From assembly GCA_000004695.1 (NCBI GenBank), contig CM000151.3:3296001-3360000 (forward strand): DNA of 64,000 nt, read 5' to 3'. The notes under the pieces are model-generated. The model was not told the origin of the DNA, made no database searches, and worked only from the letters and a program-made list of their open reading frames with translations. Each line of letters starts with the position of its first letter. The stretch's first letter is position 1. Positions 8,775-64,000 of this stretch are shown here, piece after piece. The position numbers and the translations under genes were made by a program. Origin of the DNA: Dictyostelium discoideum (taxonomy: Eukaryota).

Positions 8775-10775
8775 ATGTATAAGTTTAATTATGAAAATGA
8801 TATTGATTTTGCAAATAACCAACCAATAGAATTTTGGGATGAAGTTGCAAAGGATTTAGTTCATTGGTAAGTTTTTTTTATTTTTCTAAATTGTCTTGAC
8901 AAAAAACTAATAATTTAAAAATAAAAGGGATAAAATGTATGAAAAAGTTTATAGTGATGATGAAATATATCCAGATTGGTTTAAAGGTGGTGAATTAAAT
9001 ACATGTTATAATGTTTTAGATATTCATATTAAAAATCCAGAAACAAGAGATCAAGATGCATTAATTTATGAATGTCCATATTTAAAGAAAACTGTAAAAT
9101 TAACTTATTATCAATTATATGAAAAAGTATGTGAATTTTCAAGAGTACTTTTAAATTTAAATATATCAAAAAATGATAATGTTTTAATTTATATGTCAAA
9201 TACATTAGAACCATTAATTGCAATGTTATCATGTGCTCGTATTGGTGCAACTCATTGTGTGTTATTCGATGGTTATTCAGTTAAAAGTTTAATAGATAGA
9301 ATTGAAACAATTACACCAAAATTAATAATTACAACAAATTATGGTATTTTTAATGATGAAATTATTAATTTCATACCAAATTTAAAAGAATCAATTGAAT
9401 TATCAACTTTTAAACCAAGTAATGTAATTACTTTATTTAGAAATGATATTACAAGCGAATCAGATTTAAAGAAAGTAAATGATATACCAACGATACCAAA
9501 TACATTAAGTTGGTATGATGAAATTAAAAAATTCAAAGAAAATAATCAATTACCATTTTATGAATATGTACCAGTAGAATCAAGTCATCCATTATATATA
9601 CTATATACAAGTGGTACAACTGGTAATTCTAAAGGGGCTGTTAGAAGTAATGGTCCACATTTAGTTGGTATTAAATATCAAACATTGATACAAAAGGGTA
9701 AAACAAAAGTAGTATTTTATCATACAAGTGTTGGGTGGATATCAATTCATAATGCTTTTAATGGTTTATTATCACTTGGATATACATTGGTTATGTTTGA
9801 AGGTGGGCTTACTAAAACAAAACATATGGAAGATGATATTTGGGAAGTTATTGAAAGAAATAAAGTAACTTGTGCATCCATAATGGCTAAAGCAATTAGA
9901 TACTTAATTAAAGTTGATCCTGAATGTAAAAATTTACATTCAAAGTATGATTTATCAAATTTAAAAGAAATAATAGTTGGTGGAGAACCAATTGAAGAAT
10001 CAATTCCAAATTATATTCAAGAGAAATTAAAAGTAAAGTCAATTCGTGTATACGGTCAAACTGAAACTGGAGCATGTTATTTTTATTGTTATGATTATAA
10101 AAATTTAAAAATTCCTATTAACACAAGTGGCTTTCCATTTTCATCTTTAAAAGCAATGATTTTTTCAGATGATGGCAAAGAATTAGGTGTTAATGAAATT
10201 GGAGAGCTTGTATTTAAATTACCATTACCACCAAGTTTTGCAACTACATTTTATAAAAATGATGAAAAGTTTAAACAATTATTTACAAAATTCCCAGGTT
10301 ACTATAACCCTGGTGATTTAGGATTTAAAGATGAAAATAATTGTTATGGTGTTGTTTCAAGATCAGATGATCAAATTAAAATCAGTGGTAATAAAGTTCA
10401 ATTAAATAAAATTGAAACATCAATTTTAAAACATCCATTAGTTTTAGAATGTTGTTCAATAGGTATTTATAATCCAGATTGTTATAATGTACCAATAGCT
10501 TTTTTAGTTTTAAAACAACAAGAAGATCAATCAATTCAACAAATTGATTTAAATAAATTACAATCTGAAATTAATATAATCATTTCAAAAGATATAGAAA
10601 ATTTTGCAATTTTAAGAAAAACTTTAATAGTTACACAAATACCGAAAACCAAAGCTGGTAAAATTCAAAGACAAATCATTTCTAAATATTTAAATGATAT
10701 AAATTATGAATTACCAGATAATGTTTGTGATGTTGAAATCTTTTATAAAATCAAGGATTTATATAATAATGTTAA

Positions 10776-10779
<4 letters not shown>
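8775..10779 (+). CDS. PrpE/ACSS3-like acyl-CoA synthetase paralog A1. Exon 1 is 8775-8866 and exon 2 is 8928-10779.
   Basis: Exon 1 reads MYKFNYENDIDFANNQPIEFWDEVAKDLVHW, joined through gtaagt...aaaag to GDKMYEKVYSDDEIYPDWF... The AMP-binding motifs are present: YTSGTTGNSKG, YGQTETG, GDLGFKDENNCYGVVSRSDDQIKISG and LPKTKAGKIQR. The match to E. coli PrpE includes LPLPP versus GPLPPG and the LPKTRSGK region. Confidence 0.85.
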
Positions 10780-10841
<62 letters not shown>

Positions 10842-10899
10842 GTAATAATAATAATAATAATAAAAATAAAATAATAATAATAATAATAAAATAATAATA

Positions 10900-11290
10900 A
10901 TAGGTTCATTTGCAGCATCTACTGTATTAATTTTTGGAGCACCAAATCACCATTAGCTCAACCAAGAAATTTAGTATTTCGACATATAGGTTCAATCATT
11001 AGAGTGCATTTGGTTTATACAAATGCTCAAACTGAAGTAGCACTCTTTAGCGGTCAGTTTAGCAATTGTCGGGATGCATTTCACAAAATCAATACATCCA
11101 CCCGGTGGTGCCACTGCCTTAATTTGTGTTATGAGTGCTGAACAATGCTGAAGAGGTTTTTATTATATATCCTTACCTGTGGCATCGGGTTCTTTAGGAA
11201 TGTTACTAACCTCATTAATTGTTAATAATTTTACAAGAAAGAGAAAGTATCTGTATTTTGGTGGTAATTAAATTAATAATAATAATAATA
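10900..11290 (+). pseudogene. Decayed duplicate of the 3' third of the HPP-family gene (copy of 7930-8340).
   Basis: It is collinear with GSFAASAVLIFGAPKSPLAQPRNLV...IHPPGGATALICVMS...FARKRKYPVFWW but carries indels and frameshifts, for example 'caccattagctcaacc' missing one nt, and a TGA in 'caatgctgaagagg'. The same (AAT)n and 3' flank follow it. Confidence 0.8.
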
Positions 11291-11479
11291 ATAAATAATA
11301 ATAATAATAATAAATAATAATAATAATAATAATAATAAAAATAAAAATAGCTAGTAATAATAAAATAAAAATATTTAAATTATATCTTATACACCCCAAT
11401 TTGTAATTCATCTTTATTTTTTTATTTTATCTTATTGGTTCAAAATTTAAATAAAGATAAGATACATAATAAAATTTTT

Positions 11480-11580
11480 TAAAAAATTAAATACATGTTA
11501 TAATGTTTTAGATATTCATATGAAAAATCCATTAAAAATAGATCAAGATGCATTAATTTATGAATGTCCGTATTAAAGTT
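11480..11580 (+). pseudogene. Short decayed fragment of the synthetase exon 2 (NTCYNVLDIHMKNPLKIDQDALIYECPY*).
   Basis: It is collinear with A1 8995-9085 and ends in TAA. Confidence 0.6.
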
Positions 11581-11761
11581 TTTTTTTTTCAATGTTTTTG
11601 AACCAATAGGATAATATTAATTATTACAAATATATGTAAAAAAAGGTTATAAATCCCATACCCAATTTGTTAATTGTTTTAAACTTTTTTTTTTTTATGT
11701 ACCATTATTTTTTTTTTTATTATTATTTTATTTTATTAATATCGTTTAATTTAATAAAAAA

Positions 11762-13767
11762 ATGTATAAATTTAACTATGAAAATGAAATTGATTTAGCA
11801 AATAACAGACCAATAGAATTTTGGGATGAAGTTGCAAAGGATTTAGTTTATTGGTAAGTTTTTATTTCTTTTTTTTATTTTTTCAATTGTCATTGCAAAA
11901 AACTAATAATTTAAAATTAAAAAAAAAGGGATAGAATGTATGATAAAGTTTATAGTGGTGATGAAATTTATCCAGATTGGTTTAAAGGTGGTGAATTAAA
12001 TACATGTTATAATGTTTTAGATATTCATATAAAAAATCCAGAAACAAGAGATCAAACTGCATTAATTTATGAATGTCCATTTTTAAACAAAAATATAAAA
12101 TTAACCTATTATCAATTTTATGAAAAAGTATGTGAATTTTCAAGAGTACTTTTAAATTTAAATATATCAAAAAATGATAATGTTTTAATTTATATGTCAA
12201 ATACAATTGAAGCACCAATTGCAATGTTATCATGTGCTCGTATTGGTGCAACTCATTGTGTGTTATTCGATGGTTATTCAGTTAAAAGTTTAATAGATAG
12301 AATTGAAACAATTACACCAAAATTAATAATTACAACAAATTATGGTATTTTTAATGATGAAATTATTACATTTACACCAAATTTAAAAGATGCAATTGAA
12401 TTATCAACTTTTAAACCAAGTAATGTAATTACTTTATTTAGAAATGATATTACAAGCGAATCAGATTTAAAGAAAGTAAATGATATACCAACGATACCAA
12501 ATACATTAAGTTGGTATGATGAAATTAAAAAATTCAAAGAAATTAATCAATTACCATTTTATGAATATGTTCCAGTAGAATCAAGTCATCCATTATATAT
12601 AATATATACAAGTGGCACAACTGGTAGTGCTAAAGCAGTTGTTAGAAGTAATGGTCCATATATGGTAGGTATTAAATATCAAACATTGATACAAAAGGGT
12701 AAAATAAAAGTTGTGTTTTCTCATACAAGTATTGGCTGGGTATCATTTCATAATCTATTATATGGTTTATTTTCAGTTGGATATACATTAGTTATGTCTG
12801 AAGGAGGAGTGACAAAACCAAAACATATGGAAGATGATATTTGGGAAATTATTGAAAGAAATGAAGTAAGTTGTGCATTCACAATGGCTAAAGCAATTAG
12901 ATACTTAATTAAAGTTGATCCTGATTGTAAAAATTTACATTCAAAGTATGATTTATCTAATTTAAAAGAAATGGTACTTGGTGGAGAACCAATTGAAGAA
13001 TCAATTTCAAATTATATTCAGGAGAAATTAAAAGTTCAATCAACTCGTGTATATGGTCAAACTGAAACAGGTGTCGTTTATTTTTAGGTTTTGATAATAA
13101 AAATTTAAAAATTCCAATTAATACATGTGGAGTTTCATTTCCATCTTTAAAAGCAAAGGTTTTTTCAGATGATGGTAAGGAATTACCTTTGTATGAAATT
13201 GGTGAGCTTGTATTTAAATTACCTTTACCACCAGGTTTTACAACTACATTTTATAAAAATGATGAAAAGTTTAAACAATTATTTACAAAATTTCCAGGTT
13301 ACTATTACCCTGGTGATTTAGGATTTAAAGATGAAAATAATTGTTATGGTGTTGTTTCAAGATCAGATGATCAAATTAAAATCAGTGGTAATAAAGTTCA
13401 ATTAAATAAAATTGAAACATCAATTTTAAAACATCCATTAGTTTTAGAATGTTGTTCAATAGGTATTAATAATCCAGATTGTTATAATGTACCAATTGGT
13501 ATATTAGTTTTAAAACAACAAGAAGAAAATCAATCAATTCGACAAATTGATTTAAATAAATTACAATCTGAAATTAATACAATAATATCAAAGGATATAG
13601 AAAATTTTGCAATTTTAAGAAAAATTTTAATAGTTCCACAATTACCAAAAACTAAAGTTGGTAAAACTCAAAGACAAATCATTTCTAAATATTTAAATGA
13701 TACAAATTTTCAATTACCAGATAATGTTTGTGATGTTGAAATCTTTTATAAAATTAAAGATTTATAA
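11762..13767 (+). pseudogene. PrpE/ACSS3-like acyl-CoA synthetase paralog A2. It is disabled by an in-frame TAG and a 1-nt deletion just after the YGQTETG motif. Exon 1 is 11762-11853 and exon 2 is 11929-13767.
   Basis: A1 reads ...GACYFYCYDYKNLKIP while A2 reads ...GVVYF* (tat ttt tag gtt ttg ata ata), and the A2 segment is 1 nt shorter. The ORF then resumes in another frame at 13189 and runs to the normal C-terminus. Confidence 0.7.
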
Positions 13768-13775
13768 TAATGTTA

Positions 13776-13875
<100 letters not shown>

Positions 13876-14728
13876 GAGTATCTTTTGAAAGTTTGTTTTT
13901 ACTAAAAAATTTAAAAATTTTCAAATTTAATATTAAATAAAATTACCAAAAATTAAAAAAGTAAAATATTAACCTCTAATATGGAAAAATTATTAAAAAC
14001 ATTTTTTTTTAATTAGGATTAGAATAGTGTTAAATTAAAAAATTAAAAAAATAAGAAATAAGTTAATATAAAATTCAACCCAATGTATATATAAATTACC
14101 CATTGTGGTTTTTACCCCCTCCCCCATGTGTTTTTTTATATTTTAATTTTTAATTAAAAGAATTATTATTAATTTTTTAAAAATTAAAAAAAAAAAAAAA
14201 AAAGATAATAATATAAAATTCAAGTACTTGAAAAGGTAAAAAAAAAACAAAATAAAAAAAAAAAGATTAAAAATGATTTACCTACATAGAAAGGGGGTAA
14301 TAATTTCACCATTAAGGGACAGACATAAATGAAATCAATTAATATTTAAAAAAAAAACAATATATTTTCATTTTTTCATTTTGATTATTAATAATTAAAA
14401 ATACAATTTACTTTTTTAAAGTACATAAAAATACCTTTTTTAAAAATAATTTCAAAAAAGTAATATCTATAGGCTTAATTAGAATGAAATTAAATAATAT
14501 TTTAATTATTAAAAAGTCTAAAGATATCTCAAAACAATTAAATGACGTCGTAAAATTTTTATTTTTTAAATTTTTTTTTTTATTAAATGTAAATATTATA
14601 TGAAGAGTTATCAATTTTAAATTATAAAAAAAAAAAAAAAAAAAACTTATATTTACATTTTTTATATAATCCAATATTATTGAAAATTTTAATAATAAAA
14701 ATATATTTTTATAAAAACTATTAAAATA

Positions 14729-16764
14729 ATGTATACATTAAGCCAACCATTCAATTATGAAAATGATTATAAATTCTCAATAAACACCGACCCAATTTCA
14801 TTTTGGGATCAAGTAGCCACTAAATATGTTTATTGGTATGCATACAATAAAAAAAAACATAATTAGTTAAATAAATAATTAAATTTTTTATAAATATAAT
14901 TTAAAAATAAAAAAGGGATAAAATGTATGATAAAGTTTATAGTGGTAATGAAATTTATCCAGATTGGTTTAAAGGTGGTGAATTAAATACATGTTATAAT
15001 TTATTAGATAGACAAGTTCAGAATCCATTAAAAAAAGATCAAGTTGCATTAATTTATGAATGTCCATATTTAAAGAAAACTGTAAAATTAACTTATTATC
15101 AATTATATGAAAAAGTATGTGAATTTTCAAGAGTACTTTTGAATTTAAATGTTTCAAAAAATGATAATGTTTTAATTTATATGGCAAATACAGTTGAAGC
15201 ACCAATTGCAATGTTATCATGTGCTCGTATTGGTGCAACTCATTGTGCTTTATTCGATGGTTATTCAGTTAAAAGTTTAATAGATAGAATTGAAACAATT
15301 ACACCAAAATTAATAATTACAACAAATTTGGGAGTTGGACTTGATGAAATTGTTGATATTACTACAAATTTAAAAGAAGCAATTGAATTATCAACTTTTA
15401 AGCCTGACAATGTAATAACACTTTATAGAAATGATATTGTTTATAATAATAATAATTTCCAAACAATAATACCAAATTCATTAAATTGGGAAGAAGAAAT
15501 TAAAAAAATTAAAATTAATAATCAATCACCATTTTATGATTATGTACCAGTAGAATCAAGTCATCCAATCTATTTAATTTATACAAGTGGTACAACTGGT
15601 AATTCTAAACCAGTTGTAAGAAGTAATGGTAGTAATTTGGTTGGACTTTTATATCATTGGAATTGTTTAAGTTCAAAGGTTAATAATGATGAAAATGTAG
15701 TTTTATTTTCTGCAACTAGTGTTGGATGGGTGTCATTCCATATGTTCTTTTATGCATCATTATCAAAAGGAAATACATTTGTAATGTTTGAAGGTGGTTT
15801 CTTAAAACAAAATAATGTTGAAGATGACATTTGGGCAACCATTGAAAAACATAATGTAAACATTTATTTAGCATTACCAATTGTAATGAGATATCTTAAG
15901 AAAATGGATCCCAATGCTGAAAGATTACATTCAAAATATGATATATCACGTTTAAAGCAAGTTTGGATTGGTGCTGAAGTTATTGAAAAATCAATTCAAG
16001 ATTATATTGAAAATAAATTAAATGCTGAATCAATTGGTTTATATGGTCAAACTGAAAGTGGAATGATGTATATTTATGAATATTCAAGTATAAATAAAAC
16101 ATATGATACAGTAGGTATACCATCACCATTTATTAAACCATCAATATTATCTGAAGATGGTAAAGAGTTGGGTGTTAATGAAATTGGTGAATTCTCTCTC
16201 AAATTACCATTACCACCTGGATTTGCGACTACATTTTATAAAAATGATGAACAATATAAAAAATTATTTTCAAAATTTCCAGGTTATTATAATTCTGGTG
16301 ATTTAGGTTATAAAGATGAAAATGGATATTATGGTATTGTTTCAAGAGCTGATGATCAAATTAAAATTAGTGGTAATAAAGTTCAACTAAATACAATTGA
16401 ATCATCAATTTTGAAACATCCAAATGTTATTGAATGTTGTTCAATTGGTATTAATGATTATGATTGTTATAAAGCACCAATTGGTATATTGGTTTTAAAA
16501 AAACAAGATTCAATTTTAGATTTCAATCAATTAAAAAATGAAATTAATAATATTATTAATGATGATATTGAAAGTTATGCTGAACTAAAACAAATTATCA
16601 TTGTAAATCAATTACCAAAAACTAAAAGTGGTAAAATTCAAAGACATATACTTTCTAATTATTTAAATAACAATAATTTTAAATTACCAGATAATATTGA
16701 AAATCTTCAATTATTTTATAACATAAAAGATTCTTTTATTAAAAACTCAAATAAAAATATTTAA
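14729..16764 (+). CDS. PrpE/ACSS3-like acyl-CoA synthetase paralog A3. Exon 1 is 14729-14835 and exon 2 is 14915-16764.
   Basis: Exon 1 reads MYTLSQPFNYENDYKFSINTDPISFWDQVATKYVYW, joined through gtatgc...aaaag to GDKMYDKVYSGNEIYPDWF... It runs to a full-length 613-aa exon 2 with all AMP-binding motifs. Confidence 0.85.
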
Positions 16765-17340
16765 TCCAAAAAAAAATTTTAATCTATAATAAAAATAAAT
16801 AAATATATATATTTTTATAATTCAATTATTTATTTTTTGTTCAATATAAAAGTAATTTTATAAGTAAGAGTTTTTTTTCACATAAAAATATTCCACACAG
16901 ACACAGTGCGTGTTTTTTAATTTAACCCCTTTAATACATTTACTTATTTTTATTTGTATTGAAAATTTTTGTGGTTGGTTGTTTATAACCCGAAACTTTT
17001 TTAATATATTTTATTAAAAGACAAAAAAATAAACAAATAATTAAAATTCCACAATAAACAAGTATTTTTTTTTTTTCATCTTTGATAAAATATATCCATC
17101 TATAATTTCTTTTTATTTTAATTCATTATTTTCTTTAAAAGGATAAATAATGAAAAAGTTTTATTTTAAATTTCCACATTTTATGTTTTCCACTTTTTTT
17201 TTTTCACATAAAATTTATTTTTACTTTTAAATTTTATTTTTTTTAAAAAATAAAATATAATGATTTTTAAATTTTTTTTTTTTTATTAATTAATTACAAA
17301 AACTTGAAAAAACAACGAAAAAACAACGAAAAAAATAAAA

Positions 17341-17700
17341 TGTTTAAATTAAGTGATCCTTTTGATTATGAAAATGATTACAATTTCTCTCAAATTAATC
17401 CAATTTAATTTTGGGACGAAGCTCACTGGTATGCACTTCACAAAAAAAAAAAAAAAAAAAAAAAAAAACAAATTTTAACATATAATAAATAAAAAAAAAA
17501 AAAAAAAGGGATAAAATGTATGATAAAGTTTATAGTGGTGATGAAATTTATCCAGATTGGTTTAAAGGTGGTGAATTAAATACATGTTATAATTTAATAG
17601 ATATTCATATTAAAAATCCATTAAAAAGAGAATAAGATGTATTAATTTATGAATGTCCATTTTTAAAGAAAACAATTAAAAGAGTTTCAGACCAATTTTT
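17341..17700 (+). pseudogene. Truncated 5' duplicate of a synthetase gene: an exon-1-like segment with an in-frame TAA, a remnant intron, and about 55 codons of exon 2 ending in TAA.
   Basis: It reads MFKLSDPFDYENDYNFSQINPI*FWDEAHW, then gtatgc...ag, then GDKMYDKVYSGDEIYPDWFKGGELNTCYNLIDIHIKNPLKRE*. After ...FLKKTIK similarity is lost. Confidence 0.75.
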
Positions 17701-17882
17701 TTCTTTTTTAAATTTGCTGATTAATTTTTATTAAGATTTTTTGACAAAAAAAAAAAAAAAAATCTTCGATAAAATAAAAAAAAAAAAAAAAAAGATTAAT
17801 AAACTTTTTTTTTTTTTTTTTTTTTTTTTAATTTTATTTTATTAAAATAATTTTGGAAAAAAATGAAATTAAGTGATCCTTT

Positions 17883-19894
17883 TGATTATGAAAATGATCT
17901 AAAATATGCAGAATCCCAACCTGTTTCATTTTGGGATGACATTGCCAAAAAATATATACATTGGTAAGTTTAAAAATTTTGTAAAATAAATTATTAATAA
18001 TTTAAAAAATATAATAAAATTCCAATTATACCAATAAATAATTTAAAAAAAAAGGGATAAAATGTATGATAAAGTTTATAGTGGTGATGAAATGTATCCA
18101 GATTGGTTTAAAGGTGGTGAATTAAATACATGTTATAATGTTTTAGATATTCAAGTTCAAAATCCATTAAAAAGAGATCAAGACGCATTAATTTATGAAT
18201 GTCCATTTTTAAAGAAAACTGTTAAATTAACTTATTATCAATTATATGAAAAAGTATGTGAATTTTCAAGAGTACTTTTAAATTTAAATATTTCAAAAAA
18301 TGATAATATTTTAATATTTATGGCAAATACAGTTGAAGCACCAATTGCAATGTTATCATGTGCTCGTATTGGTGCAACTCATTGTGTACTATTCGATGGC
18401 TATTCAACAAAAAGTTTAATAGATAGAATTGAAGCTGTAAGACCAAAAGTTATTATTACCTCAAATTATGGTATTTTAAATGAGGAAATTATTACATTTA
18501 CACCAAATTTAATTGAAGCAATTGAAATATCAACTTTTAAACCAGATCATGTAATTACACATAATAGAGATTTAATTAGTTCCGATGCACAATTATCAAT
18601 AATTGAAACTATACCTACTGTACCATCTTCTTTGGATTGGGACTTGGAAATCAACAAAATTAAAGAAAACAATCAAACACCATTCTATGAATATGTTACA
18701 GTAGAATCAAGTCATCCACTTTACATTATTTATACAAGTGGTACAACTGGTAATTCAAAAGGAGTTGTTAGAAGTAATGGTCCACATTTAGTTTGTTTTG
18801 GTTATCTTTGGCCATCAATTGTTCAAAAAAATACTACTTTCTTTTCTCATACTAGTATAGGATGGGTATCGTTTCATTCATTTTTGTATGCTTCATTATT
18901 ACATGGATGTTCATTTGTGATGTTTGAAGGTGGAATTGTAAAACCAAAACATATGGAAGATGATATTTGGTCAATTGTTGAAAAGCATAAAGTTAGTGCA
19001 TTTCTAACATTAGCAAAAACAATAAGATATTTAAATAAAGTTGATCCAGATGCAAAACAAATACATTCAAAATATGATATTTCAAGTTTAAAATCAATTT
19101 GGAATGGTGGTGAAGTTATTGAAGATTCAATTCCAGAATATATTGAAAACAAACTAAAATCAAGACCATCTATTGGATATGGTCAAACTGAAACTGGTTA
19201 TTTGTATTTATTCGATTACATAAAATCAAAAAAAAATCCATACAACACAGTTGGTCCACCATCACCATTTGTCTACCCATCAATTTTATCAGAAGATGGT
19301 ATTGAATTACCAGTGAATCAAATTGGTGAAATCGTATTCAAATTACCATTACCACCTGGATTCGCTTCAACATTTTATAAAAATGATGAACAATTTAAAA
19401 AAGTTTTAACAAAATTCCCAGGTTATTATAGTAGTGGTGATTTAGGTTATAAAGATGAAAATGGATATTATGCTATCGTTTCAAGAGCAGATGATCAAAT
19501 TAAAATTGGTGGTAATAAAGTTCAATTAAACACAATTGAAACATCAATTTTAAAACATCCAAATGTTATTGAATGTTGTTCAATTGGTATTTACAATCCA
19601 GATTGTTATAATAAACCAATTGGTTTATTAACTTTAAAACAACAAGATTCAAATGTCGACTTAATTCAATTAAAAAATGAAATTAATAGTATCATCACAC
19701 AAGATATTGATAAATTTGCTCAATTAACACATATAATAATTGTTGAACAATTACCAAAAACTAAAAGTGGTAAAATCCAAAGATTAATCATTTCTAAATT
19801 TTTAAATGATAATAATTTTAAATTACCTGATCATGTATTTGAAAGTCAACAAATATATACAGATATTAAAAATTTATATTTAAATAATTTATAA
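17883..19894 (+). CDS. PrpE/ACSS3-like acyl-CoA synthetase paralog A4. Exon 1 is 17883-17963 and exon 2 is 18055-19894.
   Basis: Exon 1 reads MKLSDPFDYENDLKYAESQPVSFWDDIAKKYIHW, joined through gtaagt...aaaag to GDKMYDKVYSGDEMYPDWF... It is full length, at 610 aa. Confidence 0.85.
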
Positions 19895-52596: not shown

Positions 52597-53021
52597 TTTT
52601 TTTTTTTTTTTTTTTTTGAAAAAAAATTAAAAAATTAAAAAAATTAAAATTAAAAAAAAATAAAAAAAAATAAAATAAAAATAAAGCAGATTGGGTCAAA
52701 TGTTTAAAAAAAAAAATTAATCAGAGACATTTGTGTGTTAAAGAAAAAAAAAAAAAAAAAAGAAAAATAGACACAAAAAAAAAAAAAAAAAATTAAAATT
52801 AATAATCAAATATTTAATAATGAAAAAATAGATTCAAAAAAAAAAAAAAAAAAAAAAAAGTTGTTATATTAAAATATTTGTATAATTAATTATAACAATG
52901 ATATAAAGTTTCTGCGAAAATTTTCGTTTTTTTTTTTTTTTTTTTATAGGTTTGAGAAAAATAATGTAAAAATTATGTAAGCCGTTACAAAGTTTTCAAA
53001 TTTTTTACATTGGTTATGAGT

Positions 53022-53058
<37 letters not shown>

Positions 53059-58614: not shown

Positions 58615-61042
58615 CTATTTAAATAGTTCACAAAAATAATTATAAGAAATCTTGGTTTTAAAAATGTTATCATTAAAGTAAATATTTAAAAACTTGTGTT
58701 TTGAAAGATAGAGATGTGATAATAATATTTGAGTAATCTCAATATGATCATTTTTTAAAGAGGTTCTAATTAAATTTAAAAGTTTATCTTCTCTAAACCA
58801 TTCGATGGCATTTTCTTGCAAAACATGACAATGATGATATTGAAAATATTGGAATATTTGGATTTGACCATTATAAGCAGCTGTTTCCAAAATTGAATAA
58901 ATGAAATTTCTGATACAATTAAACTCAGCATTATATTCAGGAACATTTGAATTTGGGAATGGTTTTAAATTATCTGTTGCTCTGCTAATAACAGTTGATA
59001 ATGCTTTCAAATCACCTCTTTTACCAATAAAATATGCAAGTTTATATAAAAATGAAGTAAACATATCCCTACCTCCAGAATAGGTGTTTTTAAAATTAAA
59101 GATTTCATCATCGATTTCATCAAGTTTACCTGATAAGTAATAAAAGCAAATAATATCTGGAAGACTATTTAAAATGGTTGTTGGATTTGGAATTACATTT
59201 GAACTAGCAAATATTGGTCCATTTGTATTACTACTAAAACCTGATCCTCCTGATGGTGATGATGAGGTTGAACTACCAAATCTTGATCCAACTGTACTGC
59301 TGGTACCTGATCCCCCTAATGGTGATGATGAAGTTGAACTACCAAATCTTGATCCAACTGTACTGCTCGTACCTGATCCTTCTAATGGTGATGAAGTTGA
59401 ACTGCCAAATCTTGATCCAACTGTACTGTTAGTACCTGATTCTCCAAATGGTGATGATGATGAAGTTGAACTAGCAAACCTTGATCCAACTGTACTACTA
59501 GTACCAGATCCTCCAAATGGTGACGATGATGATGAAGCGAAACCTGGACCAAAACTTGATTTTTTAATGAATGGTACATCTTTTGGTGGGGTAAAATGTT
59601 TATTTTCATATAACCATTCAAAAAACTTTGATAATAAAATTGGTTTTTCGTCAGAATCTAAAAAGTAGTTTGAAACTTGTAGCATTCTTGATTTCATTTC
59701 ACTATCGAAAATATTTGTATTGAATATATGTTTAAATAAACATACAACTTCATTACAATTATTACCTTGGTATAAATCAGTAATAATTGGTGTTAAAATT
59801 TTTGAACCATAGTTATATATTGTAGGATTTTCTACAATATGTTTAAAAGTTTCAAAATTTAATTTAAAACTACCTTTAAAATTAATTAAATAAAGTTTTT
59901 CTTTATAATGAGTTTTAATTTGTCGTTGTTGTTGTAGTTGTTGTTGTAGTTGTTTATTTTTCTTTGATGAATTTATTAATTTTTCAAAGTGTTTTAATAA
60001 ATTTAAATTTTTAAAATTTAAAAAATTTGGATACTTTGAATAAATAAAAAGATGATGAAATTCTTGATAAATGAAATCTAACATTTCAATAGAATTTATA
60101 TATTTGCAAATATTGAAATCAAGTATTTCATCTTGAGATTCATCATGAAAACAAAAAACAACTTCTTTTTCATTTTGAGAGAATTGATTTGAGAAATGTT
60201 TAAATAATTCCACTGAATCATGTTTTACTAAAAATAAAAACAAAATATTTGATTCAATAAAATTTGTAATGAAATTTGAGTTTTCATTTGTTTTAATAAT
60301 TTCTTTTATTACTAAAGTACAAGAAATTAAAAAATTAATTTGATCTTCTTGTTTTTTAAAATTTGAAAATAATATTGAATTTTCATTTTTAAGTAGTTGA
60401 TTTTTATCTAATAATGTTTTAAAAAATTCATGATCATATTTATTATTAAAATTATATAACCAATCACTAAATAAATGTAAATCACCATTTTGTAAAGGTT
60501 GAGTAAGCTTAAATTCTATATCACTTTCTTGTCTATCAACTTGATTTAAAAAGTTTCCAAAAAGAGTATAATTTTGAGATTCCTTATTACTTTCATCATT
60601 ATCATTATCATCACCATAATAATAATTAAAGAATTGTTTTGAAGTAAAATCTAGTTGTTTTCTATTACTATAATAAATATTTAATAATTCTTTAATATTT
60701 AATTTATTTATTTTTTTATTAAAATTTGTTGGATCAACAAGTTTTGCATTTAATTGACAAATTGAATATTCATTATTAATTAAATTTGAATTATCATTAT
60801 CATTATTATTATTAAACCAATTAATTATTTTAATAACTTTAATTAAATCTTTTAATCTAAATAATGATACTAATGGACATAATGTTGTTATCTTTTTTAA
60901 AATTTCATCCTTATATTGTCTTAAATTTATTATTTCTCTTTCCATCAAGTATAAAATCATTTTAAATGTTTTAATTAATTCTTTTTTACTTTTATTAGGA
61001 GATGATAAAAATATTGATAAAATGAAATCCATAGATTTATTT

Positions 61043-61131
<89 letters not shown>

Positions 61132-61711
61132 TTCAATATTACTATTATTATTTTCAATATTACTATTATTATTGTCAATATTATTATTATTGTTATTATT
61201 ATAATTATTGGTAGTTTTAAATAAAAATAATTCAAAAAGATATTTAAATAATTTTAAAGAACAACCAGTTGAAATTGCAAGTGTGATGGATTCATTTATA
61301 TTAATTTCAAATTGAAATTTATTGACTAATGTTGAAATTCCTGTAACTGAATTATTCTCTATTAATGATTTAATTAAATTTGATTTTCCTTTTGATTTCC
61401 AATCAATTATATATCTATCACCATAATTATTAAATAAATTAAAAAAGAATCGAGTATTTTCATTATTTCCTTCCTCATCTTCTTTACCAAATACTGAATA
61501 TAACTTTTTTAATGAGCCACTACTAAATATTAAAAATTGATTTCTATTAACTTTATCTTTTATCATTGATAATTGATCATTATTTATCATTTTATCAACC
61601 ATAACAATAGAATCATATTTAATTGATAGATGTGGTGAAAAGTTTGATAATATTGTATTTTTCAATACTAAATTTCTCCATACACTCCAAAATAAAATTT
61701 CATTTTTATTA

Positions 61712-61802
<91 letters not shown>

Positions 61803-62265
61803 TATTATTATTATTATTATTATTTTTATAATTATTATTATTAATTTGTTCTTGTTGATTTATAAATTGATAACGACTAATACCAATTTCAATGATTTTT
61901 TTAATTAGACCACGAAAATCACATTTTTTAATTATATTTTCTGGAATTCCAATTGTATTTGAAATATATTCCAATCTTGCTTTATTACAATTATTTAAAT
62001 ATTCAATATTTATTAAATCTTCATTTTTGAATGTAACATCATTATTCGAAATTTCTTTAAATGCTTGAGAAATTTCATTATTGGTAGTTGGTGGTGGTTG
62101 TGATATAAATGGTGTTTCTCTTTCAACAATTGGAACAGATGTTGATTTTTGGTTTGGTTTTATAATTGTTTCCAAATCATAAATTGATTTTCTTTTTCTT
62201 TTACCTGTCTCCTCTGGAACAGTTTCACTGTTGTTTAAATCTTTATTTCTTTTTTTATTTGGCAT
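58615..62265 (-). CDS. Large low-complexity protein (about 1215 aa from MPNKKRNK...) with a basic NLS-like N-terminus, poly-Asn tracts and four ~20-aa S/T-rich repeats carrying xFG motifs. Family unknown.
   Basis: It is a single long ORF. The annotated track start at 62406 lies in poly-T, so MPNKKRNKDL at about 62265 is the more plausible start. Repeats of GSGTSSTVGSRFGSSTSSSPLGG are encoded by ~60-nt tandem units at 59220-59560. Confidence 0.55.
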
Positions 62266-62647
62266 TTTTTTTTTTTTTTTTAAATGTTTAAATACTAAAT
62301 ATAATATAAAAAAATAAAATTGAAAAAAAATTAAAAAATTAAAATGAAAAAAAAAATGATAGAGGTGATGGTTTGTCAGCGAATTATTTTGAAAAAAAAA
62401 AAACAAAAAAAAAAATAAAAAAAAAATAAAATCAGATATTTTTAGAGAAAAAAAAAGATTTTTTGGAAAATAAAATTTGTTTTTTTAGGATATTGGAAAA
62501 TATCTAAATATTTTTTTTTAAAAATTGAATTATTAATTATGGGGGTTATCAGAAAAAAAAAAAAAAAAAAAACAGTTTGTTTAAATTTTAAATATCAAAT
62601 TTTTTATTTTTTTTTTATTTTTTTTAATTTTTATTTTTTTTAATTAA

Positions 62648-64000
62648 TTATCTTCTTTGTTTTCCATTTATAATTACAGAAATAATATTATTTGGTATAT
62701 AATCATTGATTATTTGAGTTATAAGTTGTTGACTTTCAACACCTTCAAAACTAAATGTTAAACTTTTTAAATTTTTAAAATTTGAAAGATTTTTAAGGGA
62801 TCCAAAGGAATTAAAATTGGAACCAAGTGTTAGTGATGATACATTTGATGAGAAACTATTTTTTAATATATTTATATTATAATTATACAATTGTAAATCT
62901 GTTATTGAATTTGGTAAATTTCTTAAATGAATTGGTGTTTGAAAATTAAAACCACATCTTAACACTGAAATACTATCATTTGGAAGATCGATACCATTGT
63001 TTACAATATCAAATTCATCACCTAAATCTAAATATTCAACAGAATCTGGCACTGATCCATCTTCAATCCTTTGATTAAGTTTTTTAAATAAAAGATATTT
63101 TACTGATGATGGAATTGATCCAACTGGAATCATTTGATTATAAAATGGAAATGAAAGGTAGTTTATATCATTACCAATTAATCCAATTGTAAGTGTTTGG
63201 TCACCACCATCTCTTTTTTCAAGCCTTTTTACATTTGATGGTATTATATACCCAAATGGAGAATAGAAATGGTCTTTATTAACTTTTTCTTTATTAATAT
63301 GAGAAATTAAATCATCTATACTAAATCTTGTTTTTGGGTTAAAATGTAAACAATTTTGGGTGATGATTTTTAATTCTGATGATAAATGTACTGGTATTGG
63401 TGGTATTCCATTGGCGTCTCTACCAATGGTACTATTTAAATCACCACCAGCCATTTCAATTATTGTACAACCTAGACTGAATACATCAGATTTACGACCT
63501 GCATTACCATCTTGTAGTTTCACTTCTGGTGCCATATGTGTAGCTGTACCAACTCTTGAATTATATTTTGAATTGTTTTCAATTTGTATTGCATTTTCAA
63601 AACCAATAAATTTAATTTGAATTTGATTATTCTCTTTTTCAAGTAAAAGTATATTACTACCCCAATATCACGATGAATAATACCCATTTCATGAATTTTA
63701 CTTAATGCTTCTGCTATTTTGATTGTTAATAAAATAATAATATCTTGTGGAACAATTTCAATTTGTTTTAATTTCTCTTCTATAGTAATTGCACCATCAA
63801 TATATTCCATATAAATATATAATTTATTATTTTTATCATATGCAAATCCATAATATTTTGTTGAATATTCACAATTTTTTAATTTATTTAAAATATCAAT
63901 AATTGAAAAAAAAAATTCCTAAATATAAAATAAAATAAAAATAAAAAAATTAATACATAAAACTATTATTATTATTATCGTTATTATTATTACATACTTT
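62648..64000 (-). CDS. FNIP-repeat-containing protein kinase, partial. The 5' end lies beyond the window and there is an intron at about 63905-63985. An apparent frameshift sits in the catalytic loop.
   Basis: The kinase domain reads ...YGFAYDKNNKLYIYMEYIDGAI...ALSKIHEMGIIHRDI[frameshift]NILLLEKENNQIQIKFIGFENA...GTATHMAPEVKL...DVFSLGCTIIEM. C-terminal FNIP repeats follow (IPSSVKYLLF...VPDSVEYLDLGDEFD...GFNFQTPIHLRNLPNSITDLQL). Confidence 0.7.

Follow-up and report, generated by a model that had tools for sequence, protein, structure and literature searches.

In 'The Dictyostelium Kinome', Goldberg et al. 2006 (PMC1420674, PLoS Genet 2:e38) counted 15 ePK pseudogenes and reported that automated gene models had masked the lesions of these genes with introns. 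The FNIPK family in AX4 consists of fnkA-fnkE together with FNIPK-F_ps and FNIPK-G_ps. In Table S2 of that paper, FNIPK-G_ps is entered as DDB0229868p (STE / Dicty3 / FNIPK) with the motifs 'CVIK', 'HRDIXGSN' and 'GFE' and the remark 'pseudogene', and a chromosome-2 duplicate, DDB0217289p (FNIPK-G_C2d_ps), is entered with the same motifs and the same flag (PMC1420674). The tabulated sequence, in which X stands for a frameshift, starts with MNPEILEHKNEDWEFIKILGSDKEVHKKKNGPLNXVNVSLCVIKKIEKEFFFSIIDILNKL... and further on reads ...GIIHRDIXGSNILLLEKENNQIQIKFIGFENAIQ... (PMC1420674). Both frameshifts, GPLNXVNV and HRDIXGSN, were thus already marked in 2006. A paper search on fnkG and FNIPK returned unrelated matches only.

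Here we describe a gene on the minus strand at the extreme end of a stretch of 64,000 nucleotides of Dictyostelium discoideum DNA (the window, meaning the whole stretch analysed; G+C 22%). Over about 400 aa, to ...NYNINI, the FNIPK-G_ps string as published in Table S2 equals the two reading frames of this gene in the window. The window is accordingly chromosome-2 DNA of the NC4/AX4 laboratory lineage. We put at roughly 93% the probability that the gene is FNIPK-G_ps, or its chromosome-2 duplicate, and that it is a real and recent unitary null allele which arose through small deletions.

A frame break in the kinase catalytic loop

In the window, the gene starts with the last codon of exon 1 (AAA, 63998-64000, minus strand, as are all features of the gene given below). 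The remainder of exon 1, with a second frameshift and the VAIK-type lysine (CVIK), lies past the window end. A true intron of 79 nt (63919-63997; GTATGT...TTTAG; 8.9% GC), whose position is kept in all orthologues, is followed by exon 2 (62648-63918), which starts at 63918 with EFFFSIIDILNKLKNCEYSTKYYGFAYDKNNKLYIYMEYIDGAITIEEKLKQIEIVPQDIIILLTIKIAEALSKIHEMGIIHRDI and encodes kinase subdomains IV-XI and, between about 63166 and 62651, the C-terminus with its FNIP repeats, before ending in a stop codon at 62650-62648. The protein of the intact allele (see below) matches Pfam PF00069 (Pkinase) at residues 47-255 with 113.7 bits against a cut-off of 31.7 (E=1.3e-32) and FNIP (PF05725) in 4 stretches with 71.9 bits (E=4.6e-20). 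This combination of a kinase domain with C-terminal FNIP repeats, together with the kinome listing, places the gene in STE/Dicty3/FNIPK.

Translation of exon 2 is broken between 63664 and 63663. The codons CAT CGT GAT ATT (63675-63664) encode HRDI, the final conserved residues in frame ahead of the lesion, and up to this point the upstream frame reads ...GIIHRDI. HRDI is followed by GGGGTAGT (63663-63656), which is 8 nt where 9 are required, and from 63655 by AAT ATA CTT TTA CTT, which encodes NILLL and reads on as NILLLEKENNQIQIKFIGFENAIQIENNSKYNSRVGTATHMAPEVKL.... The (R)GSNILLL part of the catalytic loop (63641-63663), including the N171-equivalent AAT at 63655-63653, is in the -1 frame. 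This downstream frame, NILLLEKENNQIQIKFIGFEN...HMAPEV, is shifted by -1 relative to GIIHRDI, and its first codon, TGG, takes its T from the end of ATT. No stop interrupts the upstream frame from 63918 until, after the shift, it runs into TGA at 63522-63520, and the downstream frame has no stop from the lesion until 62650-62648. Hence no uninterrupted frame passes through the kinase catalytic domain in the window: the HRD codons (63675-63667) and the Asn codon (63655-63653) are in different frames, whereas the intact alleles read HRDIRGSN. The meeting of two kinase-like open frames at this point is far above chance. The initial annotation, which had described 8 nt in place of 9 within the HRD loop and a -1 frameshift between open, kinase-like flanks, was exact on both counts.

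Intact alleles and orthologues

A search with the repaired protein returned close matches of two kinds. Those of the first kind, P0001 and P0066, are gene models of the same sequence in which the lesion is skipped, and they are discussed with the introns below. Those of the second kind, P0067, P0002, P0068 and P0003, read through the site as HRDIRGSNILLL. The source of P0067 is a group of seven sequencing runs, assembled de novo (SRR26869267, SRR26869256, SRR26869257 and four with the same contigs), P0002 and P0068 come from two diverged 'D. discoideum' isolates, and P0003 comes from 'D. cf. discoideum'. The accessions of the runs gave no match in the literature. The Logan contigs L003-L005 retain the intron and are thus genomic; when spliced, they give an unbroken 471-aa ORF. 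The intact allele, present in seven public sequencing runs, is about 99.7% identical and is whole at both deletion sites. Compared with L002, a second assembly that carries the lesion, its exons differ by the two deletions and by 3 synonymous changes only (TTC/TTT and two GGT/GGA), and its intron differs by small indels. There have been zero amino-acid replacements since the two alleles split, so the inactivation is very recent.

Alignment of the DNA identified the base that was lost as the single A preceding the G-run. The near-identical intact allele reads ATTAGGGGA where the window reads ATT-GGGGT, and the A of an AGG/AGA Arg codon is gone between T63664 and G63663 (ATT[A]GGGGTAGTAAT). The window and L002 share GATATT-GGGGTAGTAAT, and the A is present both in L003-L005 (GATATTAGGGGAAGTAAT) and in L001, L006, L007 and L008 (GATATTAGAGGTAGTAAT). 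The intact form of the site is the 9-nt ATTAGGGGT, and five relatives, which are syntenic orthologues or alleles, carry ATT AGR GGW AGT AAT (DIRGSN). All five of these related loci have the 9 nt and an unbroken frame through the catalytic loop, and in four of the five the whole ORF is unbroken; uninterrupted ORFs are found in L003, L006, L001 and L007. Because the A is missing only from the window and L002, and four more distant loci have ATTAGAGGTAGT, the deletion is the derived state. On this alignment, the ancestral state is ATT AGA GGT AGT AAT (I R G S N), from which the window lineage has lost the A of the Arg codon.

At every genome-assembly locus, a gene of about 1200 aa (window 58615-62406) lies directly downstream. 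This synteny covers the genome-assembly loci, and the Logan contigs of about 1.5 kb stop short of the downstream gene. The shared neighbour shows that the assembly loci are orthologues or alleles and not paralogues. The window gene has kept its intron and relatives carry an intact orthologue at the syntenic position, as is the case for a unitary pseudogene; since that orthologue occupies the same position in other isolates, the loss took place at the original locus and is not that of a dead duplicate. Among four intact sequences, dN/dS (Nei-Gojobori) was 0.10-0.39 in the kinase domain and 0.57-0.77 in the FNIP region. These values point to purifying selection before the break, strongest on the kinase fold, and to a gene that was functional until then.

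Several further observations concern these loci and the remainder of the window. The neighbour ORF (58615-62406, minus strand; 1216-1263 aa), which is syntenic in all related genome-assembly loci, contains long tracts of Asn as well as some five tandem repeats of about 20 aa that are rich in Ser and Gly (...GSGTSSTVGSRFGSSTSSSP...), and it gave no match to Pfam. L001 and L006 (ACTFIR and ACTFIW, both labelled D. discoideum) are about 90% identical to the window across 59197-63992; for L001, the blastn identity of 90.2% is that of the main 4.8-kb HSP, the remaining matches being low-complexity. This level is in line with the strong divergence noted for the tropical 'discoideum' isolates (Holland et al. 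2025, PMC12745789). In L008 (2450-4100; GCA_054859205.1, 'D. cf. discoideum') the gene has frame-breaking indels of its own, of which one of +1 falls in the N-lobe, one of -2 in the FNIP part and one of +2 ahead of the stop, and its gene model, P0004 (310 aa), is patched around them. Seen in one long-read assembly, these indels possibly represent an independent pseudogenisation, or else an assembly error. At the other end of the window, 8935-19894 (plus strand) holds four tandem AMP-binding/ACAS_N (acetoacetyl-CoA-synthetase-like) paralogues. Of these, the second is divided between two frames (11936-13081 and 13120-13761, plus strand), with the junction (13040-13130) reading ...YGQTETGVVYF and a stop, then GFDNKNLKIPINT, at a T-run, and appears to be another case of a frameshift or pseudogene. 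Within the array, 11484-11573 and 17516-17701 are short gene fragments from the N-terminus.

Sequencing error, introns and recoding

A base could be missing from the reference through a sequencing or assembly error, with the gene intact in the strain. A single-base gap beside a GGGG run is a typical position for such an error. Also, neither of two ORFs specific to the frameshifted window (96 aa, 63520-63810; 295 aa, 62648-63535) has a record in the Logan gene calls, a look-up that is uninformative in that gene calling on such contigs may differ. However, the G-run has 4 G in both the window and the intact near-identical allele, so the change is not one of homopolymer length, which counts against an error at the run. 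The initial annotation had spoken of a possible error at a G-run; the run is unchanged, and what has been lost is the lone A before it.

The same gap is present in L002, which was taken from GCA_054883475.1, among ten de novo Nanopore+Illumina assemblies of Holland et al. 2025 (PMC12745789). Over 11.4 kb, L002 shows 99.74% identity with the window, from which it is separated by 11 substitutions and several homopolymer-length differences, and because it differs elsewhere from the window it is an independent sequence. Throughout the kinase gene, L002 equals the window, deletion included. The disabling lesion is thus reproduced, as would be the case for a pseudogene and not for an artefact. Independent support for the lesion consists of this one assembly and of the 2006 curation, in which Goldberg et al. 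examined the gene and marked both lesions in both chromosome-2 copies. Holland et al. 2025 sequenced the lab strain AX2-214, and their remaining isolates are all diverged from AX4 (PMC12745789). Since AX2-214 is the sole genome near AX4 in that set, L002 (ACTFIT) is almost certainly AX2-214, an assignment made from sequence identity and not from metadata. Five of the substitutions between the window and L002 are clustered within 10 nt (window 53013-53022); a local error in the reference could explain this cluster, as could a complex mutation or a small gene conversion.

L002 also extends past the window. A short way past window position 64000, at L002 10100-10108 (minus strand), is a second 1-nt deletion in the same kinase gene, about 0.6 kb upstream of the catalytic-loop lesion and on the same allele. 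The deletion (AAT-GAGTAA in L002 against AATGGAGTAAAT) leads to MNPEILEHKNEDWEFIKILGSDKEVHKKKNGPLNE and a stop, so that exon 1 of L002 reads ...GPLNE and then a TAA after 35 codons; the intact form at this site is AATGGAGTA. The sources for this off-window lesion are L002 and the publication (GPLNXVNV) only. The deposited models bypass it via an earlier donor (GAA followed by GTACAT), and the segment with the VAIK-type lysine is lost from them. Sequencing noise does not account for two independent frame-breaking deletions within one 1.4-kb coding sequence that a second assembly reproduces. We therefore regard a reference error as very unlikely. The initial annotation had offered sequencing error and recent pseudogenisation as alternatives. 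The former does not survive the identical deletion in L002 and the exon 1 frameshift. The latter is borne out by the shared deletion, the second frameshift, the publication of the gene as a pseudogene and an intact allele that otherwise differs only synonymously.

A different possibility is that the lesion lies within a true short intron, of either 68 nt (63701-63634) or 26 nt (63657-63632), and that the mRNA encodes a protein without the catalytic loop. This is how the gene is modeled in the databases. P0001 (UniParc UPI00004E2BA6, 424 aa), an AX4-type model, skips SKIHEMGIIHRDI...NILLLEKE, and excising the 68 nt from the window gives P0001 exactly. P0066 (ACTFIT_002873, 438 aa), a GenBank model, joins HRDIGV to NNQIQ, and excising the 26 nt gives P0066 exactly. 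P0001 was looked up in assemblies and was not found; it exists as a database model only. Both stretches have GT...AG ends, their excision restores the frame, and 68 nt is inside the range of 60-250 nt given for Dictyostelium introns, for which the GC content is given as below 15% (Goldberg et al. 2006, PMC1420674). Against this, the GC content of the two stretches is 27.9% (68 nt) and 23.1% (26 nt), near the 24.9% of coding sequence, and that of the neighbouring true intron is 8.9%. In five relatives the stretch has one additional nucleotide, stays in frame and codes for SKIHEMGIIHRDIRGSNILLLEK, which hardly varies. Furthermore, 26 nt is less than any plausible intron size, and Goldberg et al. 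called such introns artefacts and, wherever they had a transcript, refuted them by RT-PCR or EST. The GT/AG ends and, for the 68-nt stretch, the length fit a spliceosomal intron, but introns of 68 nt and 26 nt are rejected on composition, on coding conservation and, for the 26-nt case, on size, and we consider a true intron at this site highly improbable. A very short intron had been called implausible here from the outset; the GenBank model does use one of 26 nt and the older AX4-type model one of 68 nt, and both are artefacts. UniParc UPI00004E2BA6 and GenBank KAM9952181.1 therefore contain false introns that conceal the frameshift and delete the catalytic loop (window 63632-63701).

Recoding, either by programmed -1 ribosomal frameshifting or by transcriptional slippage, would mean that the full-length kinase is still made. 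The downstream frame is indeed -1 relative to the upstream frame, and a G4 run is present at the junction. However, the junction (ATTGGGGT) does not contain a slippery heptamer of the form X XXY YYZ (it reads A TTG GGG T), and a run of only four G would be too short for slippage during transcription. The shifted state is derived and is found in none of the relatives, in which the loop is encoded conventionally, and at the exon 1 lesion, where there is no nucleotide run, a TAA follows at once. A programmed -1 frameshift was rejected on the heptamer and on the lack of conservation of the shift in relatives, and recoding of either type has, in our estimate, next to no chance of being correct.

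FNIPK-G and the known Dictyostelium kinases

The two deletions account for the inactivation of the allele. Through deletion of the single A from the Arg codon of HRDIRGSN, the FNIP repeats and the remaining part of the kinase domain are no longer in frame, and the second 1-nt deletion, in exon 1 past the window, creates the TAA after 35 codons. The 471-aa protein therefore cannot be made from this allele, and a functional product is presumably absent. The null allele arose recently at the original syntenic locus and is not a decayed extra copy.

The protein that was lost may itself have lacked kinase activity. The intact form retains HRD, the catalytic-loop Asn and APE, and the K72 (VAIK) lysine is kept as CVIK (exon 1, past the window end; published sequence). 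The glycine-rich loop GxGxxG, also encoded by exon 1 outside the window, is cut to LGS-DKE, with the first Gly alone kept and a 4-residue gap. D184 of DFG is missing: IGFEN (63593-63607) aligns with the DFG of paralogues, likewise in every intact orthologue, so that Gly takes the place of the Mg-binding Asp throughout the orthologue group. GFE for DFG and the truncated Gly-loop make it probable that the intact protein, too, is a pseudokinase that has no catalytic activity.

In D. discoideum, the two forms of FNIPK-G, null and intact, could represent a natural presence/absence polymorphism kept by selection and not by drift, or a loss that was fixed during laboratory domestication of NC4; we consider this unlikely. 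Under selection, for example, the product might be a dispensable pseudokinase scaffold whose loss is helpful in some environments, and if selection or domestication were at work, an independent decay of the gene in L008, from a cryptic sister lineage, would indicate repeated, possibly adaptive, loss. A recent unitary null allele that arose through small deletions, the reading we prefer, has little weight for biology, as it concerns a documented kinase pseudogene of the reference strain. Its value is for annotation: UniParc UPI00004E2BA6 (424 aa) and GenBank KAM9952181.1 (438 aa, with the 26-nt 'intron') are unfit as kinase sequences, and the true gene structure is given by the intact 471-aa allele from public reads and by the intact orthologues of wild isolates.

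The pseudogene has been documented since 2006, and the loss is recent and strain-specific. The window locus shares with FNIPK-G_ps and FNIPK-G_C2d_ps, as listed in Table S2, the HRDIXGSN frameshift, GFE for DFG, the kinase and FNIP parts and the status of pseudogene; to the 2006 entry we add the intact orthologues and alleles, a precise account of what the mutation is and in which direction it went, and estimates of selection. Frameshifts or stops in conserved kinase regions are also seen in the 14 other ePK pseudogenes of D. discoideum AX4, FNIPK-F_ps among them, and automated pipelines had annotated every one of these as a gene, with the lesion masked by an intron or by truncation. Most of them were read in 2006 as inactivated duplicates of a parent in the same genome, whereas FNIPK-G_ps is a unitary loss, which refines that general view. 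The kinases fnkA-fnkE (STE/Dicty3/FNIPK) have the same layout, with an N-terminal ePK domain and C-terminal FNIP repeats, and the catalytic motifs of the family are often degenerate: D166 is lacking in fnkC and fnkD, and domain a of fnkE has GFD. However, the ORFs of fnkA-fnkE are unbroken in AX4, where FNIPK-G has two frameshifts. As with segregating pseudogenes in general, a null allele and an intact allele about 99.7% identical to it coexist here among D. discoideum-type genomes.
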